A stretch of 7,446 bases of DNA from a virus (Duplodnaviria > Heunggongvirae > Uroviricota > Caudoviricetes): the IMG/VR virus record IMGVR_UViG_2698536435_000009; one strand, written 5' to 3'. Below the pieces are notes generated by a model that had not been told where the DNA came from, made no database searches, and worked only from the letters and a program-made list of their open reading frames with translations. Position 1 is the first letter of the stretch. Each line of letters starts with the position of its first letter. Positions 1 through 5,868 of the stretch are shown in pieces. The position numbers were made by a program, and so were the translations under genes.

Positions 1-354
1 ATCGGGCATTATCTGAACATAAAACACTATCAATAAGTTGGAGTCATTACCCGATATCCTGCTGAGAACATAAACACCCACGGATCGAGGCGTACGCTAT
101 CATGTTGCTGTGCACCGCCCAGTTTATAATTGGCGATGGTATCGATATCCATGTACCACACTGACATGTTTTAAAAAATGCAATAAGACATTGTATCTGA
201 AAGAAAAAACAGGATTTTAAGGCGCTTTTTTATACCGTTTTCCGTGTTTTTAACTGCCTGATTTTATTGAAATCTTTTTTAGTTTTGCAGAAAGGATTTT
301 TTGCTCGATCGCTTTAATTTTATACATTCCTGATAACGGAAATTTTTTTGCCCG

Positions 355-384
355 TTGACAGTTTTTGTTCTCCGGGGCTATATT
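355..384 (+). promoter_or_regulatory. Candidate sigma70 promoter (TTGACA, 18-nt spacer, TATATT) reading rightward toward the Rha-family gene
   Basis: Consensus -35 TTGACA at 355-360 and near-consensus -10 TATATT at 379-384, preceded by a very AT-rich, T-tract-rich region (about 170-354) that could act as an UP element or curved DNA. Sequence pattern only. Confidence 0.4.
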
Positions 385-444
385 CCTCACACAACCGCAA
401 AATCGGTTGTCGGGATTGGCGTCTCGGATAACATCACAACGCAT

Positions 445-466
445 AGCCGCGTTTGCGGTTTTTTTT
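445..466 (+). terminator. Terminator-like hairpin with U8 tract in the leader, about 55-75 nt downstream of the candidate promoter (possible attenuator or end of a short leader RNA)
   Basis: Short GC stem CCGC/GCGG (447-450 with 455-458, extendable by A-U and G-U pairs) with GTTT loop, followed directly by eight T residues (459-466). The stem is short, so this is weak. Confidence 0.3.
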
Positions 467-565
467 GCGTTAAGCATTGCCACATTCGCATTATGGTGGG
501 GCGTGCAGGGGCGGAGAAATCCGCGCCGGGTTTTGTGATGACCGGTTACGCCAACCCTGTACGTC

Positions 566-599
566 TCACCACCTCCCTGATTGGCGTCAGAGGTGGTGA
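566..599 (+). promoter_or_regulatory. Perfect 9-bp stem hairpin (TCACCACCT, 16-nt loop, AGGTGGTGA) immediately upstream of the Rha-family gene ribosome-binding site
   Basis: Perfect inverted repeat read directly from the sequence. The 3' arm is Shine-Dalgarno-like, and the hairpin ends 14 nt before the GGAG at 614-617. Confidence 0.3.
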
Positions 600-626
600 T
601 CATCCAATTAATTGGAGTCATCACAT

Positions 627-1184
627 ATGAATACAGCTATAACTTTTTCTAACGAGTCACCAAAAGTCTTTTTCAAAGATGGTCGCCTGGTTACCACCTC
701 TCAAGCTGTTGCCGACTACTTCGATAAACAACATAAACACGTTTTAGCTAAGATTGACACACTCGACTGCTCTCCCGAATTTACATCAGCCAACTTTTCG
801 GCCGATGTTCAGACTGTCGAAATTGGCAACGGCGCAGAACGTGAATCACGATGCTACCTGATCACAAAAGACGGCTTCATGTTCCTCGTAATGGGATTTA
901 CTGGCAAAAAAGCAGCCAGACTAAAAGAAGCTTACATTGAAAAATTTAACGCAATGGAAGAAGAACTCCACAAACGTCCTCCTGCAGCACAAAACTCCCC
1001 CGCCCCAAATAATGGATGCGCATTACTGATCCACTTCGATAAACACGGTCAGGTCGAGTTCACAGAAAAAGTCCCCGCCGATGCGATGGTATGCACTCTG
1101 GAACGGTTTAAATTTTATCTGGAGCAACATGGGTGGATCGTTGCCCGTAAAGAACAATTGGTGGAAAGGTTGATGCGGTTTTAA
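627..1184 (+). CDS. Rha-family phage regulatory protein (antirepressor-like), 185 aa
   Basis: ORF track 612..1184. The likely true start is ATG 627 with GGAG 9 nt upstream (612 is a TTG). The N-terminal region VTTSQAVADYFDKQHKHVLAKIDTL fits the Phage_pRha signature pattern (S-x-x-V/I-A-x-x-F-x-K-x-H-x-x-V-L-R/K-x-I) from memory. Stop is TAA. Confidence 0.65.
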   Translation: MNTAITFSNESPKVFFKDGRLVTTSQAVADYFDKQHKHVLAKIDTLDCSPEFTSANFSADVQTVEIGNGAERESRCYLITKDGFMFLVMGFTGKKAARLKEAYIEKFNAMEEELHKRPPAAQNSPAPNNGCALLIHFDKHGQVEFTEKVPADAMVCTLERFKFYLEQHGWIVARKEQLVERLMRF

Positions 1185-1310
1185 TGAATGCAAAACCCCG
1201 GATGATCACCGAGGTTAATTTTATCGAGCGTGATTGCCGCTAATCGCCATCGCTCTGATTGAGCGTAAATCATTCAGGTTATTCAGTTCTTCCTTCTGCT
1301 CTCGCTGACG

Positions 1311-1481
1311 TCAATAAATCCCATCATTGCGATCAACCTCATCCTTAACCATTGATGCGAGCAGTTCTTCCAGTTTCTGCGCTGACAGCTTTACCTGGTG
1401 ATCTTCAGCATCTTCCCGGGCTATTGTGGTTCGCGCAGTGGCTGATTTTGCTGACATCACCACAGGGGGCAGACGGACCAT
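1311..1481 (-). CDS. Hypothetical small protein (56 aa, MVRLPPVVMSAKSATARTTIAREDAEDHQVKLSAQKLEELLASMVKDEVDRNDGIY)
   Basis: Part of ORF track 1311..1592, whose listed start is a TTG inside the palindrome module. The internal ATG at 1479-1481 has GGAGG 10 nt upstream. No recognisable family; it could be a gene fragment. Confidence 0.2.
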   Translation of the reverse strand: MVRLPPVVMSAKSATARTTIAREDAEDHQVKLSAQKLEELLASMVKDEVDRNDGIY

Positions 1482-1547
1482 TGAACCATGGCCTCCGGAA
1501 CAAATAAGGGCAAAAATAACAACCACTATCGAAAGCTCACAAACTAA

Positions 1548-1581
1548 CCGCAGCACGTTCCTGCATACGACGTGTCTGCGG
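1548..1581. repeat. Imperfect 11-bp inverted repeat (CCGCAGCACGT ... ACGTGTCTGCGG) at the 3' junction of repeat unit A
   Basis: Read directly from the sequence. It is paralogous to the perfect palindrome at 4656-4688 and sits in a conserved roughly 70-bp module that also supplies the stop codon of the tfa-like gene. Confidence 0.5.
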
Positions 1582-1595
1582 CATAATCCCAATGA

Positions 1596-1865
1596 TTACT
1601 CCCTGACAGGATTTGCAGGCCACTCAATATCAGGTGCAGTTGATGTATCAACACGATTCAACAATACCCGATATTTATTCCATGCCTCCAGCAACGATCT
1701 TTCTTCCTCCGTTGCGATTTCCAGATCTACAGCATCCTGCAGTGGCGCAATATACTCACTAAATTCCTGGATGTAGAACTGTGTGGTGACGGTCTTCCAG
1801 CCATTCGGCTCCTGCTGTATCGAAGCATACTAGGCTATTTCAATATCGCTATGCTGCGGCAGCAT
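1596..1865 (-). pseudogene. Tail fibre assembly (Tfa)-like short protein, copy A, inactivated by an amber codon at codon 12
   Basis: About 90% DNA identity to the intact copy at 3654..3923. Translation gives [11 protein letters not shown] then TAG (plus-strand CTAGG at 1830-1834, where copy B has CCAGG). The rest stays in frame and keeps the conserved Tfa C-terminal motif ([25 protein letters not shown]). Confidence 0.6.
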
Positions 1866-1921
1866 TTAACCCCTTGTAATTCATCGCCATAATTGATTTA
1901 ATTCACAAATAAAACTATAAC

Positions 1922-2373
1922 ATGGTGAAATCAATGAAAACAAACACAGATGATGGGGCTAAAATTTACACACCACTTACCCTAAAGCTTTATGACTGGT
2001 GGGTTTTGGGAGTATCAAATCGGCTTGCATGGGGATGTCCTACAAAGGAACACCTTCTTCCACACTTTCTGGAACATTTAGGTAACAACCATCTGGATAT
2101 TGGTGTTGGAACTGGGTTTTACCTTACTCACGTACCTGAGAGTAGTCTGATATCTTTAATGGATTTGAACGAAGCTAGCCTGAACGCGGCATCTACAAGG
2201 GCTGGGGAATCAAAAATTAAACATAAAATTAGCCATGATGTTTTTGAACCTTATCCCGCGGCGTTACATGGTCAATTTGATTCCATTTCCATGTTTTACC
2301 TTCTTCACTGCCTGCCTGGAAATATATCTACAAAAAGCTGTGTAATACGCAATGCGGCGCAGGCCTTAACTGA
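1922..2373 (+). pseudogene. Class I SAM-dependent methyltransferase, copy A, truncated after codon 150 by the IS110-family element
   Basis: DNA is identical to 3980..4431 of the intact copy and the homology stops abruptly at 2373. The ORF track frame (1922..2461) reads on into the IS, adding an unrelated 29-aa tail. Motif I LDIGVGTGFY is present. Confidence 0.7.
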
Positions 2374-3653
2374 ATCAGGGAACTGGTTATTCTCATTTTT
2401 TATTTGTGACATTGTGGTTGTTGTGCGACAGACATTGCTATTCGGCCCATATCCCAGATAAAACCCGCCAGCTCACGTGCAACAGCAACAATTGTAATAT
2501 TGACATTCTTTCCTTTGGCCTGAAGTTTTCGATACCTCTTACAAAGCCTGAGTTGAGCATCCCATGCTCTGTCAATGACGGGGCGGGGTAAATTTTCCTG
2601 CCTTTTTTGTATTGCCGGACTGATGCGTGCCGGATGACGGTAACTCCACGCTGCCTCGACCAATAGCTTTCTGGCATAGCTGTTTCCGGCTTTGGTAATG
2701 CTGCCCTGATGTCTGCTTCCACCCGATGAATATTCTGATGGCGTGATACCAAACCATGACATCAGTTGTCGTGGATGTTCAAAACGGGTCAGATCACCCA
2801 GTTCAGAAATTAATCCAACCGCAGTAATAAACTGAATCCCTCGCATGGCTTGCAGCGCCTCTACTACCGGATACAGCCTCCATTCGGTAACGGCCTCCTT
2901 CAGGGCGGATTCCAGCCGTTCACATTGTGCCTGCCGATCTTCTATTGTACGACGGTGTTCGTCAAAAGCTAATTGTCGCCAGGGACTTTCGAATGAGTAT
3001 TTGCTGAGCCAGCGTCGGTGTGCAGGGCCCCAATCTGCTCGCCCGACATAATGGACCCCATGAACCAGAAGAAACGATTTCAGACGTTGCCTTGCATGCC
3101 GTAAATCATCGCGGGCAGATGCCCATGCCCGGGCCAAATCCCGGAATGCCTCATCTTCAATGCCGGGTACGTAGACAGCAGAAAGATCTCCTGCACGCAG
3201 TGAACGCACAAGTCTGATGGCATCACGGCGATCGGTTTTAACCCGCTCCCCCGGTTTTTTCGGGATAAGTGAGGGGGCGCAGACCATGCAGTCAAAACCG
3301 GATTTCACCAGCCGACGATAAAGTCCATAACCACAGGGCCCCGCTTCATAAACGATACTGACCTGCGATGACTTTGACCTGAGACGTTTACAAAGATTCT
3401 GAATATCAGTAGGTGATGTGCCAATTTTACCCATCAGTTCAACAGGTTCTGAATTGATAGCATAAGCGACAGTAATCGATTCTTTGTGAACATCTAACCC
3501 GACGTACAATGTGTTATTGTTGTTCATGCTGGCCTCCGTGGTGGAAATACCGGGGTGTAGCAACAGCTCACCCATGCGGCTCTGACAACGATGTTAACCC
3601 GCGTTAAATATCCCACGTTGGCCAGCATCTGTCTCACGGAAAGTCATACTGCC
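2374..3653 (-). mobile_element. IS110-family insertion sequence (about 1.28 kb, boundaries approximate) with no obvious terminal inverted repeats
   Basis: Bounded on the left by the break in methyltransferase homology at 2373/2374 and on the right by the tfa-like copy B (stop at 3654, homology to copy A resuming at 3676). It contains a single DEDD-type transposase ORF. The right boundary is uncertain within 3528-3675. Confidence 0.65.
2400..3527 (-). CDS. IS110-family (DEDD) transposase, about 375 aa
   Basis: ORF track 2400..3575. The preferred start is ATG 3525-3527 (MNNNNTLYVGLDVHK) with GGAGG 7 nt upstream. It has the N-terminal YVGLDVHK motif typical of IS110-family transposases and the C-terminal ITAVGLISELGDLTRFEHPRQLMSWFGITPSEYSSGGSRHQGSITKAGNSYARKLL region. 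Confidence 0.85.
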   Translation of the reverse strand: MNNNNTLYVGLDVHKESITVAYAINSEPVELMGKIGTSPTDIQNLCKRLRSKSSQVSIVYEAGPCGYGLYRRLVKSGFDCMVCAPSLIPKKPGERVKTDRRDAIRLVRSLRAGDLSAVYVPGIEDEAFRDLARAWASARDDLRHARQRLKSFLLVHGVHYVGRADWGPAHRRWLSKYSFESPWRQLAFDEHRRTIEDRQAQCERLESALKEAVTEWRLYPVVEALQAMRGIQFITAVGLISELGDLTRFEHPRQLMSWFGITPSEYSSGGSRHQGSITKAGNSYARKLLVEAAWSYRHPARISPAIQKRQENLPRPVIDRAWDAQLRLCKRYRKLQAKGKNVNITIVAVARELAGFIWDMGRIAMSVAQQPQCHK

Positions 3654-3923
3654 TTACATTGTGTCTGGTTCTTCCGGCCACTCAATATCAGGTGCAGTTG
3701 ATGTATCAACACGGTTCAGCAACACCCGATACTTCTTCCAGGCTTCCAGCAACGAGTTTTCTTCCTCCGTTGCGATCTCCAGATCTACAGCATCCTGAAG
3801 TGGCGCAATATGCTCACTGAATTCCTGGATGTAGAACTGTGTGGTGACGGTCTTCCAGCCATTCGGCTCCTGCTGTATCGAAGCATACCAGGCTATTTCA
3901 ATATCGCTATGCTGCGGCAGCAT
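3654..3923 (-). CDS. Short tail fibre assembly (Tfa)-like protein, 89 aa, intact copy B
   Basis: ORF track 3654..3923. The C-terminal 50 aa ([50 protein letters not shown]) align with the C-terminus of the full-length Tfa at 6583..7110 ([45 protein letters not shown]). The N-terminal 40 aa are unrelated. Confidence 0.55.
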
Positions 3924-3950
3924 TTAACCCCTTGTAATTCATCGCCATAA

Positions 3951-3979
3951 TTGATTTAATTCACAAATAAAACTATAAC
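3951..3979 (+). promoter_or_regulatory. Possible promoter for the methyltransferase gene (TTGATT, 17-nt spacer, TATAAC)
   Basis: Hexamers at 3951-3956 and 3974-3979 in the 56-bp divergent intergenic region. The -10 element abuts ATG 3980, so the real start may be the second ATG at 3992 on a very short leader. Weak, pattern only. Confidence 0.2.
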
Positions 3980-4648
3980 ATGGTGAAATCAATGAAAACA
4001 AACACAGATGATGGGGCTAAAATTTACACACCACTTACCCTAAAGCTTTATGACTGGTGGGTTTTGGGAGTATCAAATCGGCTTGCATGGGGATGTCCTA
4101 CAAAGGAACACCTTCTTCCACACTTTCTGGAACATTTAGGTAACAACCATCTGGATATTGGTGTTGGAACTGGGTTTTACCTTACTCACGTACCTGAGAG
4201 TAGTCTGATATCTTTAATGGATTTGAACGAAGCTAGCCTGAACGCGGCATCTACAAGGGCTGGGGAATCAAAAATTAAACATAAAATTAGCCATGATGTT
4301 TTTGAACCTTATCCCGCGGCGTTACATGGTCAATTTGATTCCATTTCCATGTTTTACCTTCTTCACTGCCTGCCTGGAAATATATCTACAAAAAGCTGTG
4401 TAATACGCAATGCGGCGCAGGCCTTAACTGACGATGGAACTCTATACGGAGCCACAATTCTTGGCGATGGAGTTGTGCACAATAGCTTCGGTCAAAAACT
4501 GATGCGCATTTACAATCAGAAAGGCATCTTTTCAAACACAAAAGATTCCGAAGAAGGCTTAACACATATACTCTCAGAGCATTTCGAGAATGTTAAAACC
4601 AGGGTTCAAGGTACTGTAGTAATGTTTTCCGCTTCAGGGAAAAAATAG
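3980..4648 (+). CDS. Class I SAM-dependent methyltransferase (Rossmann fold), 222 aa, intact copy B
   Basis: ORF track 3980..4648. Motif I LDIGVGTGFYL (hh-D-h-G-x-G-x-G), with an acidic residue after beta-2 (LMDLNEA). No DNA-methyltransferase catalytic motifs (DPPY/NPPY or PC) were seen. An alternative start is ATG 3992. Stop is TAG. Confidence 0.8.
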   Translation: MVKSMKTNTDDGAKIYTPLTLKLYDWWVLGVSNRLAWGCPTKEHLLPHFLEHLGNNHLDIGVGTGFYLTHVPESSLISLMDLNEASLNAASTRAGESKIKHKISHDVFEPYPAALHGQFDSISMFYLLHCLPGNISTKSCVIRNAAQALTDDGTLYGATILGDGVVHNSFGQKLMRIYNQKGIFSNTKDSEEGLTHILSEHFENVKTRVQGTVVMFSASGKK

Positions 4649-4655
4649 CATCCAA

Positions 4656-4688
4656 CCGCAGCACGTTCTTGCTTAAGACGTGCTGCGG
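4656..4688. repeat. Perfect 11-bp inverted repeat (CCGCAGCACGT, 11-nt loop, ACGTGCTGCGG) between the convergent methyltransferase and tfa fragment C
   Basis: Read directly from the sequence. It is GC-rich but has no adjacent U-tract on either strand, so it is not a canonical intrinsic terminator. Confidence 0.5.
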
Positions 4689-4702
4689 CATAATCCCAAT
4701 GA

Positions 4703-4797
4703 TTACTCCCTGACAGGGTTCGTAGGCCACTCAATATCAGGTGCAGTTGATGTATCAACACGGTTCAGCAACACCCGATACTTTTTCTAGGCTTCCA
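4703..4797 (-). pseudogene. Tfa-like C-terminal fragment, copy C, with an amber codon at the conserved Trp position
   Basis: Homologous to 3654-3745 of copy B. It reads EA then TAG then [27 protein letters not shown]. The TAG is plus-strand CTAGG at 4787-4791 where copy B has CCAGG. Homology to tfa ends at 4797. Confidence 0.55.
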
Positions 4798-4798
4798 C

Positions 4799-5029
4799 CA
4801 CCAGCACGACAAGATGCCGCATACAGTGACCCAGTCAGTCCAGTTTTCAGACAACCAGTGCGTCACCTTTTTGAAGGCGCTTTAAAGCACGTTTTAATCC
4901 AGGTCGGCCTGTCCTTGTTCCGCTTAATTTATCTTCAAATATTTGTTCATATCCTGCACAAACAAGAGCGTTTCGTTGCAGGTCTGTATTCTGGTCATTT
5001 GTTGATACCCTTACATAGCCAATCAGCAC
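4799..5029 (-). pseudogene. pin: Pin/Gin/Cin-family serine DNA invertase, N-terminal remnant (about 77 codons) with in-frame stops, fused to tfa fragment C
   Basis: From GTG 5027-5029 (GGAG 8 nt upstream) it reads MLIGYVRVSTNDQNTDLQRNALVCAGYEQIFEDKLSGTRTGRPGLKRALKRLQKGDALVV, matching the Gin/Pin N-terminus including the catalytic Ser in VRVSTNDQ. It then reads TGA-KLD-TGA-LGHCMRHLVVLVVEA against Gin WKLDRLGRSMKHLISLVGEL (Gin sequence from memory). The resolvase C-terminus and the helix-turn-helix are absent. Confidence 0.8.
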
Positions 5030-5083
5030 GCTGAATCTCCCGTCCAAAAGCACAAATCATGCCATGCAGGCCAGAAACCGCCA

Positions 5084-5109
5084 TTATCTAAAACCTCGGT
5101 TTACGAGAA
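5084..5109. other. gix/pix-type 26-bp recombination crossover site for a Gin/Pin-family invertase
   Basis: TTATCTAAAACCTCGGTTTACGAGAA, with the imperfect dyad AAACC-TC-GGTTT, closely resembles the Mu gix and e14 pix sites as I remember them. It lies between the invertase start and the tail-fibre variable segment, and the tail-fibre reading frame opens inside it at 5092. Confidence 0.7.
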
Positions 5110-5868
5110 CTCGGCACAAGCGGGGAGAAAATACCGTTACTCAGTACAGCGAATACCTGGACTAATCGACAAACATTCAGCGGTGGCCTTTCTGGTGAAC
5201 TATCCGGCAATGCTTCTACAGCTGCAAAATTAAAAACTGCCAGGAAAATAAGCAATGTGGCTTTTGATGGTTCCTCCGATATCACATTAAAAGCAAGTCA
5301 TGTTGGTGCGTTTGCCTTAGGGAAAACAGGAAGCACCGTTGCGAATGATAAAGCAGTTGGATGGAACTGGAGTAGCGGAGCCTATAACGCAACTATTAGT
5401 GGTGCATCAACGTTAATTATTCATTTTTATATGGGAGAAGGAAGTTGTCCTGCAGCTCAGTTTCGGATTAATTATAAAAATGGCGGTATTTTTTATCGTT
5501 CAGCCCGTGATGGTTATGGTTTTGAAGCCGACTGGTCCGAATTTTACACCACCAGAAAACCTTCAGCAGGAGATGTTGGTGCACTGCCGTTATCTGGTGG
5601 TCAACTGAATGGTGCACTGGGTATCGGAACATCCAGTGCTCTTGGCGGTAATTCGATTGTATTGGGTGATAATGACACGGGCTTTAAACAAAAAGGCGAT
5701 GGTAATCTGGATGTTTATGCTAATAACGTCCATGTTATGCGCTTTGTCTCCGGAAGCATTCAAAGTAATAAAACCATAAATATTACGGGACGTGTTAATC
5801 CCTCGGATTACGGTAACTTTGATTCCCGCTATGTGAGAGATGTCAGACTTGGCACACGAGTTGTTTAG
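5092..5868 (+). CDS. Tail fibre protein variable C-terminal segment (Sv, silent orientation), with no own start, ending at an in-frame TAG; the frame continues 5872..6018
   Basis: The open frame begins within the crossover site (NLGLRELGTSGEKIPLLSTANTW...) and covers ORF track 5257..5868 (GTG-initiated). It is Gly/Ser-rich and fibre-like. After TAG 5866-5868 the same frame encodes 48 more aa ending [17 protein letters not shown], homologous to the C-terminus of the minus-strand copy ([17 protein letters not shown]). Confidence 0.6.
   Translation, partial: NLGLRELGTSGEKIPLLSTANTWTNRQTFSGGLSGELSGNASTAAKLKTARKISNVAFDGSSDITLKASHVGAFALGKTGSTVANDKAVGWNWSSGAYNATISGASTLIIHFYMGEGSCPAAQFRINYKNGGIFYRSARDGYGFEADWSEFYTTRKPSAGDVGALPLSGGQLNGALGIGTSSALGGNSIVLGDNDTGFKQKGDGNLDVYANNVHVMRFVSGSIQSNKTINITGRVNPSDYGNFDSRYVRDVRLGTRVV

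Follow-up and report, generated by a model that had tools for sequence, protein, structure and literature searches.

The amber codon at 4787–4789 of the stretch analysed here is best read as a neutral change of the inner cytosine to T in an ancestral CCAGG, an event that occurred once, in a tail-fibre assembly (tfa) stump that was already dead, and most likely by deamination of 5-methylcytosine; we place the probability of this reading at about three in four. The stretch (hereafter the window; 7,446 nucleotides, IMG/VR record IMGVR_UViG_2698536435_000009) is the end of a decayed lambdoid prophage, flanked in ST131, NCTC86 and Shigella-type genomes by trpA and a truncated ompW. It begins inside an IS1 element, of which only the last bases are included; in near-identical loci the IS1 transposase ORF ends 36 nt past the position of base 1. 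Reading rightwards, ash and rha come first, followed by a DUF4376 pseudogene and, on the minus strand, tfa relic A; the 5′ part of a ybcY-like methyltransferase gene, ISSso6, tfa relic B and the full methyltransferase gene come next. After a hairpin and tfa fragment C, the window closes with the stump of an invertase gene, a site resembling gix, and a tail-fibre segment that is invertible and carries two Sv-tfa sets in opposed orientation. Shigella-type loci match the window at 99.6–100%, except for a block of 2,058 bp (2374–4431) that is absent from them. The features on which the analysis turns are as follows.

1596–1865, minus strand: tfa relic copy A, with an amber CTAGG at 1830–1834 (changed base 1831)
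2374–4431, no strand assigned: 2,058-bp insertion-duplication, composed of an orphan base A, a truncated ISSso6, the 3′ part of the locus-2 tfa and a second locus-1 copy
2375–3652, minus strand: ISSso6 (IS110 family), with its transposase ORF intact but ~245 bp missing from the element end that lies past the stop codon of that ORF
3653–3923, minus strand: tfa relic copy B, an 89-codon ORF, with intact CCAGG at 3738–3742 and 3888–3892
3980–4648, plus strand: intact gene for a ybcY-like class I SAM-dependent methyltransferase, with a 5′ duplicate at 1922–2373
4640–4690, minus strand: terminator-like hairpin followed by a U-run, just downstream of the tfa stop (fold −35.1 kcal/mol, z = −6.4)
4703–4797, minus strand: tfa fragment C, the last 30 codons and TAA stop (4703–4705) of a lambda-type tail-fibre assembly gene of 194 codons
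4787–4791, minus strand: derived CTAGG, with TAG read as the complement of 4787–4789 and the mutation at 4788, formerly the inner C of CCAGG
4798–5053, minus strand: remnant of a Pin/Cin-like serine invertase, ~codons 1–82, fused in frame to fragment C; stops at TGA 4847–4849 (Trp position, derived in the ompW lineage) and TGA 4834–4836 (Arg position)
5084–5107, no strand assigned: gix/pix-like crossover site, bounding the invertible tail-fibre segment on its left

The amber codon of fragment C and its ancestral state

A preliminary description of this DNA had reported an amber at the conserved LEAW codon of fragment C, and we confirmed CTAGG at 4787–4791, where the minus-strand frame reads EA-TAG-KKYRV. 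The CCAGG of copy B, given there as the intact counterpart, was likewise found at 3738–3742, at the Trp of the LEAW codon; copy B and fragment C differ at 2 of 73 aligned bases. The amber is followed by 27 codons, and no start codon was found downstream of it in the fragment C frame. With 30 codons and an internal TAG, fragment C holds no complete ORF over the whole Caudo_TAP domain. Its homology to Tfa is nonetheless close, 148 of 149 bases being those of the 3′ end and terminator of tfa in PhiR26_1 (PV340555). The hairpin of this terminator (4640–4690), overlooked by a simple terminator scan and revealed by folding, is conserved in K-12, ST131 and PhiR26_1.

PhiR26_1 represents the source architecture: stf, tfa (194 aa), terminator, ybcY-like methyltransferase and a tfa relic (101 aa). 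It differs from the window in that its tfa is full-length after stf, whereas the window keeps the last 30 codons, joined to an invertase stump. Against window 4649–4797, this functional lambdoid phage shows a single mismatch, base 4788, which is C in the phage; phage lambda matches the same interval at 85.7%. CCAGG was also found in all 31 matches of a pattern scan over one genome per species and in the downstream tfa of K-12 at the fragment C site, and base 4788 is C in the junction-bearing loci L009, L010 and L056–L058. The Trp at this codon is conserved throughout the Tfa copies of the window and also in PhiR26_1. Given that PhiR26_1, the 31 species-representative matches and K-12 all carry CCAGG, sequence comparison settles TGG/CCAGG as the ancestral state and TAG/CTAGG as the derived one. 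Two elements of the preliminary description, the derivation of TAG from a CCAGG state and the Dcm-site signature of the change, are thereby borne out: PhiR26_1, the junction copies and the species representatives agree, and relative to them the inner C of CCAGG has become T. The LEAW codon of copy B, which had served as the reference, comes from another prophage, yet it is a valid witness of TGG.

Lambda-type tfa sequence was also encountered in ~25 species-representative assemblies of unrelated bacteria, among them Streptomyces, Bradyrhizobium, Pseudomonas and Shewanella (L024–L054). The contigs were either ~48.4–48.5 kb or tiny, and many were labelled low-coverage; contamination with phage lambda control DNA is the most likely source.

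Junction with the invertase and the order of decay

At 4797|4798, with a few bases of microhomology, fragment C is fused in frame to codon ~82 of the Pin/Cin-like invertase. Using 40-base queries in which the variant base lay inside every 28-base seed word, we found this junction in ~544 complete E. coli genomes, with CTAGG in 371 and CCAGG in 173; the latter form two haplotypes, of 74 and 99 genomes. All sampled junction copies with CTAGG lay at trpA/ompW, and those with CCAGG at prfC (Survcare253), bioA/ybhB (E1535, 99-3165, 2018-02-2CC) and potB (SEC470). Because the identical junction is present with CCAGG in 173 genomes, the genome sequences place the truncation of fragment C before the amber.

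Upstream of the amber and in frame with it, the TGA at 4834–4836 (invertase Arg position) occurs in every junction copy examined except L056, the bioA locus of 2018-02-2CC. There, within 3433–3759, the Arg-position site reads TGG, and the fusion frame is otherwise open apart from one TAA at a Gln codon. The ancestral codon of this TGA was not recovered from phage invertases, which align only from 4839 rightwards; CGG to TGG to TGA and CGA to TGA are both possible histories. The ompW lineage added two changes, the TGA at the Trp codon (4847, in the non-Dcm context TCCAG) and the TAG at 4788, and each lineage has gathered different stops in the same invertase::tfa relic.

Since the relic frame was already dead, truncated earlier and bearing an in-frame TGA upstream, the amber inactivated nothing; it is a neutral change in DNA that was already untranslatable as Tfa. 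The view that two paralogues had been inactivated separately by their ambers does not survive this result, as fragment C was already a 30-codon stump, behind an in-frame TGA, when its junction still carried CCAGG.

The invertase stump matches the N-terminal resolvase domain (PF00239, Pfam Resolvase; E = 4.6e-15, profile positions 2–69 of 145) and is 95% identical in DNA to phage invertase genes over 4839–5060. It ends at ~codon 82 and contains two in-frame TGA codons, so that no open frame spans the complete catalytic and C-terminal DNA-binding domains. To its right lies the crossover site at 5084–5107, which we take to resemble gix. Segment 5080–7400 is inverted in a 99.8% identical Shigella-type locus (L019) and in NCTC86 (L008), with the breakpoint inside 5080–5104. 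The arrangement resembles the Pin/Gin/Cin segments (e14 P, Mu G and P1 C) in having an invertase gene by a crossover site, two opposed Sv-tfa sets and both orientations among close relatives; it differs from them in that the invertase of the window is cut at ~codon 82 and carries two TGA codons. Recent flips of the segment would presumably need an invertase acting in trans, the local one being a dead stump. Within the segment, the C-terminal ORF of the tail fibre carries an amber of its own at 5866–5868, where CAG became TAG by a C-to-T change in the non-Dcm context GTTCAGACC. This amber is common to Shigella-type loci and absent in NCTC86, Survcare253 and E1535.

Copies A and B and the second amber

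The only other CTAGG in the window lies at 1830–1834 in copy A, where copy B and ST131 have CCAGG. That the two ambers are separate events, as had been proposed, is upheld by their distribution: 4788 T is common to Shigella-type loci, ST131 and NCTC86, whereas 1831 T is absent from ST131, NCTC86, K-12, locus 2 (the ipaH-island prophage described below) and the Shigella-type locus L017, which has C. A 40-mer with 1831 T was found in 51 complete E. coli genomes, within the same module at other loci, including potB in B7A and in an O9:H10 strain and ompT in MS7163 (L021–L023), each with different private substitutions. The distribution of 1831 T may reflect recurrence, spread by recombination or reversion in L017, and such a reversion could have come about through Vsr or through conversion from locus 2. 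It is possible, though we rather doubt it, that both CTAGG sites are natural hot-spot alleles that have arisen repeatedly, and not accidents that each happened once.

Copies A and B match the Caudo_TAP profile only at positions 75–130 of 131 (Pfam; copy B against PF02413, 2e-26) and are preceded by ~35 unrelated codons; they are 5′-truncated relics. The same type of relic occurs in the functional phage PhiR26_1. As these copies match only the last 56 profile positions and the relic is found in a living phage, the amber at 1831 truncates a small conserved ORF of unassigned function, not a bona fide tfa. The LEAW codon of copy A itself falls within CCATG, which is not a Dcm site.

The DLP12 module of K-12, by appY and nohD, has the same order of tfa relic, opposite-strand methyltransferase, terminator hairpin and tfa, at 96–97% identity. 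The corresponding gene names are, we assume, tfaD, ybcY and tfaX, and comparison with PhiR26_1 also supports the label ybcY. DLP12 differs from the window in that its downstream tfa keeps ~145 codons and CCAGG, and in that its methyltransferase gene is frameshifted. It differs also in its upstream relic (L011, aligned to window 1680–1684), where the same LEAW Trp codon has become TGA through the outer C of a former CCAGG, now TCAGG. This TGA is the third independent stop at a Trp codon of these relics. A further observation concerns the methyltransferase gene of the window, in which a Shigella-specific A-to-G change at 4602 turned CCAAG (4599–4603) into CCAGG, a new Dcm site.

Copy B lies within the 2,058-bp insertion-duplication. 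From 2375 to at least 3889, the window matches an ipaH-island prophage near dinI and yehUT (locus 2) with one difference, at 2937 in ISSso6. Locus-2 alleles run throughout 3653–3889, and locus-1 alleles are found from 3979 at the latest. On these alleles copy B is a chimera, derived from the ipaH-island prophage from 3653 to ~3889 and, by 3979 at the latest, from locus 1. The ISSso6 copy is 99.9% identical to annotated copies, its 375-aa transposase is identical to theirs and matches Pfam DEDD_Tnp_IS110 and Transposase_20, and it comprises only 246–1523 of the ~1,523-bp element, one of whose ends is thus missing. In the duplicated locus-1 sequence, 1618–2373 resembles 3676–4431. No complete E. 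coli genome was found to cover at least 80% of the window, and exact searches with the truncated methyltransferase ORF (179 aa and 175 aa) had no hits; the insertion-duplication therefore looks rare or strain-specific. The near-identical loci, which carry ipaH and IS1, suggest that the host is Shigella or EIEC-like. At the left joint of the insertion-duplication, methyltransferase nt ~452 is linked illegitimately to an internal ISSso6 position; the right joint arose by homologous crossover, somewhere between 3889 and 3979. Both joints could stem from one template switch that ran from locus 1 into locus 2 and then returned. Three simple models were rejected, namely plain insertion, a crossover between two copies of the IS, and the integration of a circle after its excision, each predicting locus-2 alleles at 1921/1932/1941 or at 3979/3990/3999 that are not seen.

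Across the window (3653–3657) and loci L002, L005 and L060–L064, CTTAC directly follows the same element end in all seven ISSso6 copies examined, and the empty site in L002 likewise carries CTTAC. CTTAC resembles a conserved target core, which an IS110-family element that inserts sequence-specifically would be expected to have.

Mutational spectrum and origin of the amber

The preliminary description had further suggested that the locus decays mainly by transitions at G:C pairs, citing its stop codons. We compared nine copies of the tfa-methyltransferase module over 956 gap-free columns, taking the majority state as ancestral, and counted 17 G:C to A:T transitions among 24 substitutions, the others being 5 A:T to G:C transitions and 2 transversions. 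Adding the pin′/tfa′ relic brought the G:C to A:T share to 22 of 31 polarised substitutions. The bias is thus real, and the use made of the stop codons falls away. Every nonsense codon that can be reached by a transition arises through G:C to A:T. Stops at Trp, Arg (CGA) and Gln therefore show only transitions as opposed to transversions, the genetic code allowing just G:C to A:T, and by themselves they are no proof of bias. The regional excess is the general bacterial one, G:C to A:T changes predominating throughout bacteria (PMC2936535). A hand count on the plus strand over 1761–2373 and 4432–5104 (301 C, 255 G) gave 16 C-to-T against 6 G-to-A changes, and a strand asymmetry of these events is possible.

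Two of the 31 events fell on the 10 Dcm target bases of five ancestral CCWGG sites, within 1,286 bases, where 0.24 were expected (P = 0.025, post hoc). When only G:C to A:T events and only G:C bases were counted, the expectation at Dcm targets was 0.40 (P = 0.06, post hoc). CTWGG, on which, along with CCWGG, Vsr acts at mismatches, is three-fold under-represented in the window, with 7 occurrences observed and 22.6 expected; such scarcity is what active Vsr repair would be expected to produce (PMC2715241). The window itself contains neither dcm nor vsr.

The history that we propose begins with an in-frame illegitimate joint at microhomology, which fused the 30-codon tfa stump to the first ~82 codons of the invertase. 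The fused frame already carried its upstream TGA before the amber. In the prophage relic between trpA and ompW, a 5-methylcytosine made by Dcm at 4788 would then have deaminated to thymine, and the resulting T:G mismatch would have escaped very-short-patch repair by Vsr and been fixed by replication. This would have happened once, the allele now being found in Shigella-type genomes, ST131 and NCTC86. The ancestral state, the place of the change within the Dcm site, the order of events and the distribution are established by the comparisons; we infer the single origin of the T allele from 12 sampled loci, the allele being present in 371 genomes, and likewise infer that cytosine 4788 was methylated and that its methylation caused the change. 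A close precedent is provided by the amber hot spots of lacI (Coulondre, Miller et al. 1978, as reviewed in PMC12606429), in which the second C of CCAGG changes to T. As in lacI, a C-to-T change at the second C created an amber, and CTAGG is the product that Vsr normally reverses. The 4788 change differs from the lacI hot spots in being a natural, fixed polymorphism in a prophage relic, with no phenotype and found without selection.

The same base could also have changed by an ordinary G:C to A:T transition, arising from an error at replication or from deamination of a cytosine that carried no methyl group, and falling on a Dcm site by chance. The bacterial predominance of such transitions speaks for this origin, as do the 20 of 22 regional G:C to A:T changes that lie outside Dcm sites. 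The nearby nonsense changes at 4847 and 5866 are C-to-T in non-Dcm contexts, and in K-12 tfaX the same Trp codon was hit at the outer, unmethylated C (TCAGG/TGA). Chance accounts less well for two hits at the methylated base among the five ancestral Dcm sites in 1.29 kb, where 0.24–0.40 were expected, and for a T allele at the copy A site on several haplotypes and at several loci; CCWGG is moreover a documented hot spot, in lacI (PMC12606429) as in E. coli mutation data (PMC13250602). We regard an ordinary transition as unlikely, albeit a contender to be taken seriously, and 5-methylcytosine deamination as the best single explanation; the pattern fits a hot spot, short of the proof that a single event could not give.

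Two other readings were weighed. Had fragment C been a working tfa paralogue, the 4788 amber would have knocked it out, and the conservation of the Trp in all Tfa copies of the window and in PhiR26_1 indicates that a full-length gene would indeed be inactivated. This is very improbable in view of the just 30 tfa codons that remain, the 173 genomes in which the junction, at three or more other loci, retains TGG, the in-frame TGA upstream and the lack of any start codon after the amber. An artefact of sequencing or base calling, arising at a methylated motif, is hardly conceivable. Nanopore base-callers do err at CC(A/T)GG (PMC6703438), but the errors reported there call A as G and T as C within the motif; an inner C called as T is not among them. 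Moreover, the exact 40-mer around 4788 T is present in 371 complete E. coli genomes and in all 8 Shigella-type loci fetched, at one chromosomal locus in every copy sampled. An allele carried by hundreds of independent assemblies is not a read error, and we rejected a nanopore methylation artefact on both grounds.

The 4788 change is thus of a long-known kind, most likely the classical Dcm hot spot, in a dead relic, and as a textbook Dcm-type C-to-T change in junk DNA it matters little alone. Fragment C, the invertase stump and both copies A and B are best annotated as pseudogene remnants. The locus serves rather as a worked example. The order of prophage-relic decay can be recovered from population data, here truncation first and point stops later; apparent paralogues within one window may be chimeras of different prophages; and stops at Trp, Arg and Gln alone cannot argue for a mutational bias. 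If the hits at 1831 are independent, or are reversions driven by Vsr or by conversion, multi-copy prophage relics of the tfa-methyltransferase type could act as neutral reporters of the rates of 5-methylcytosine deamination and of escape from Vsr in wild E. coli and Shigella.
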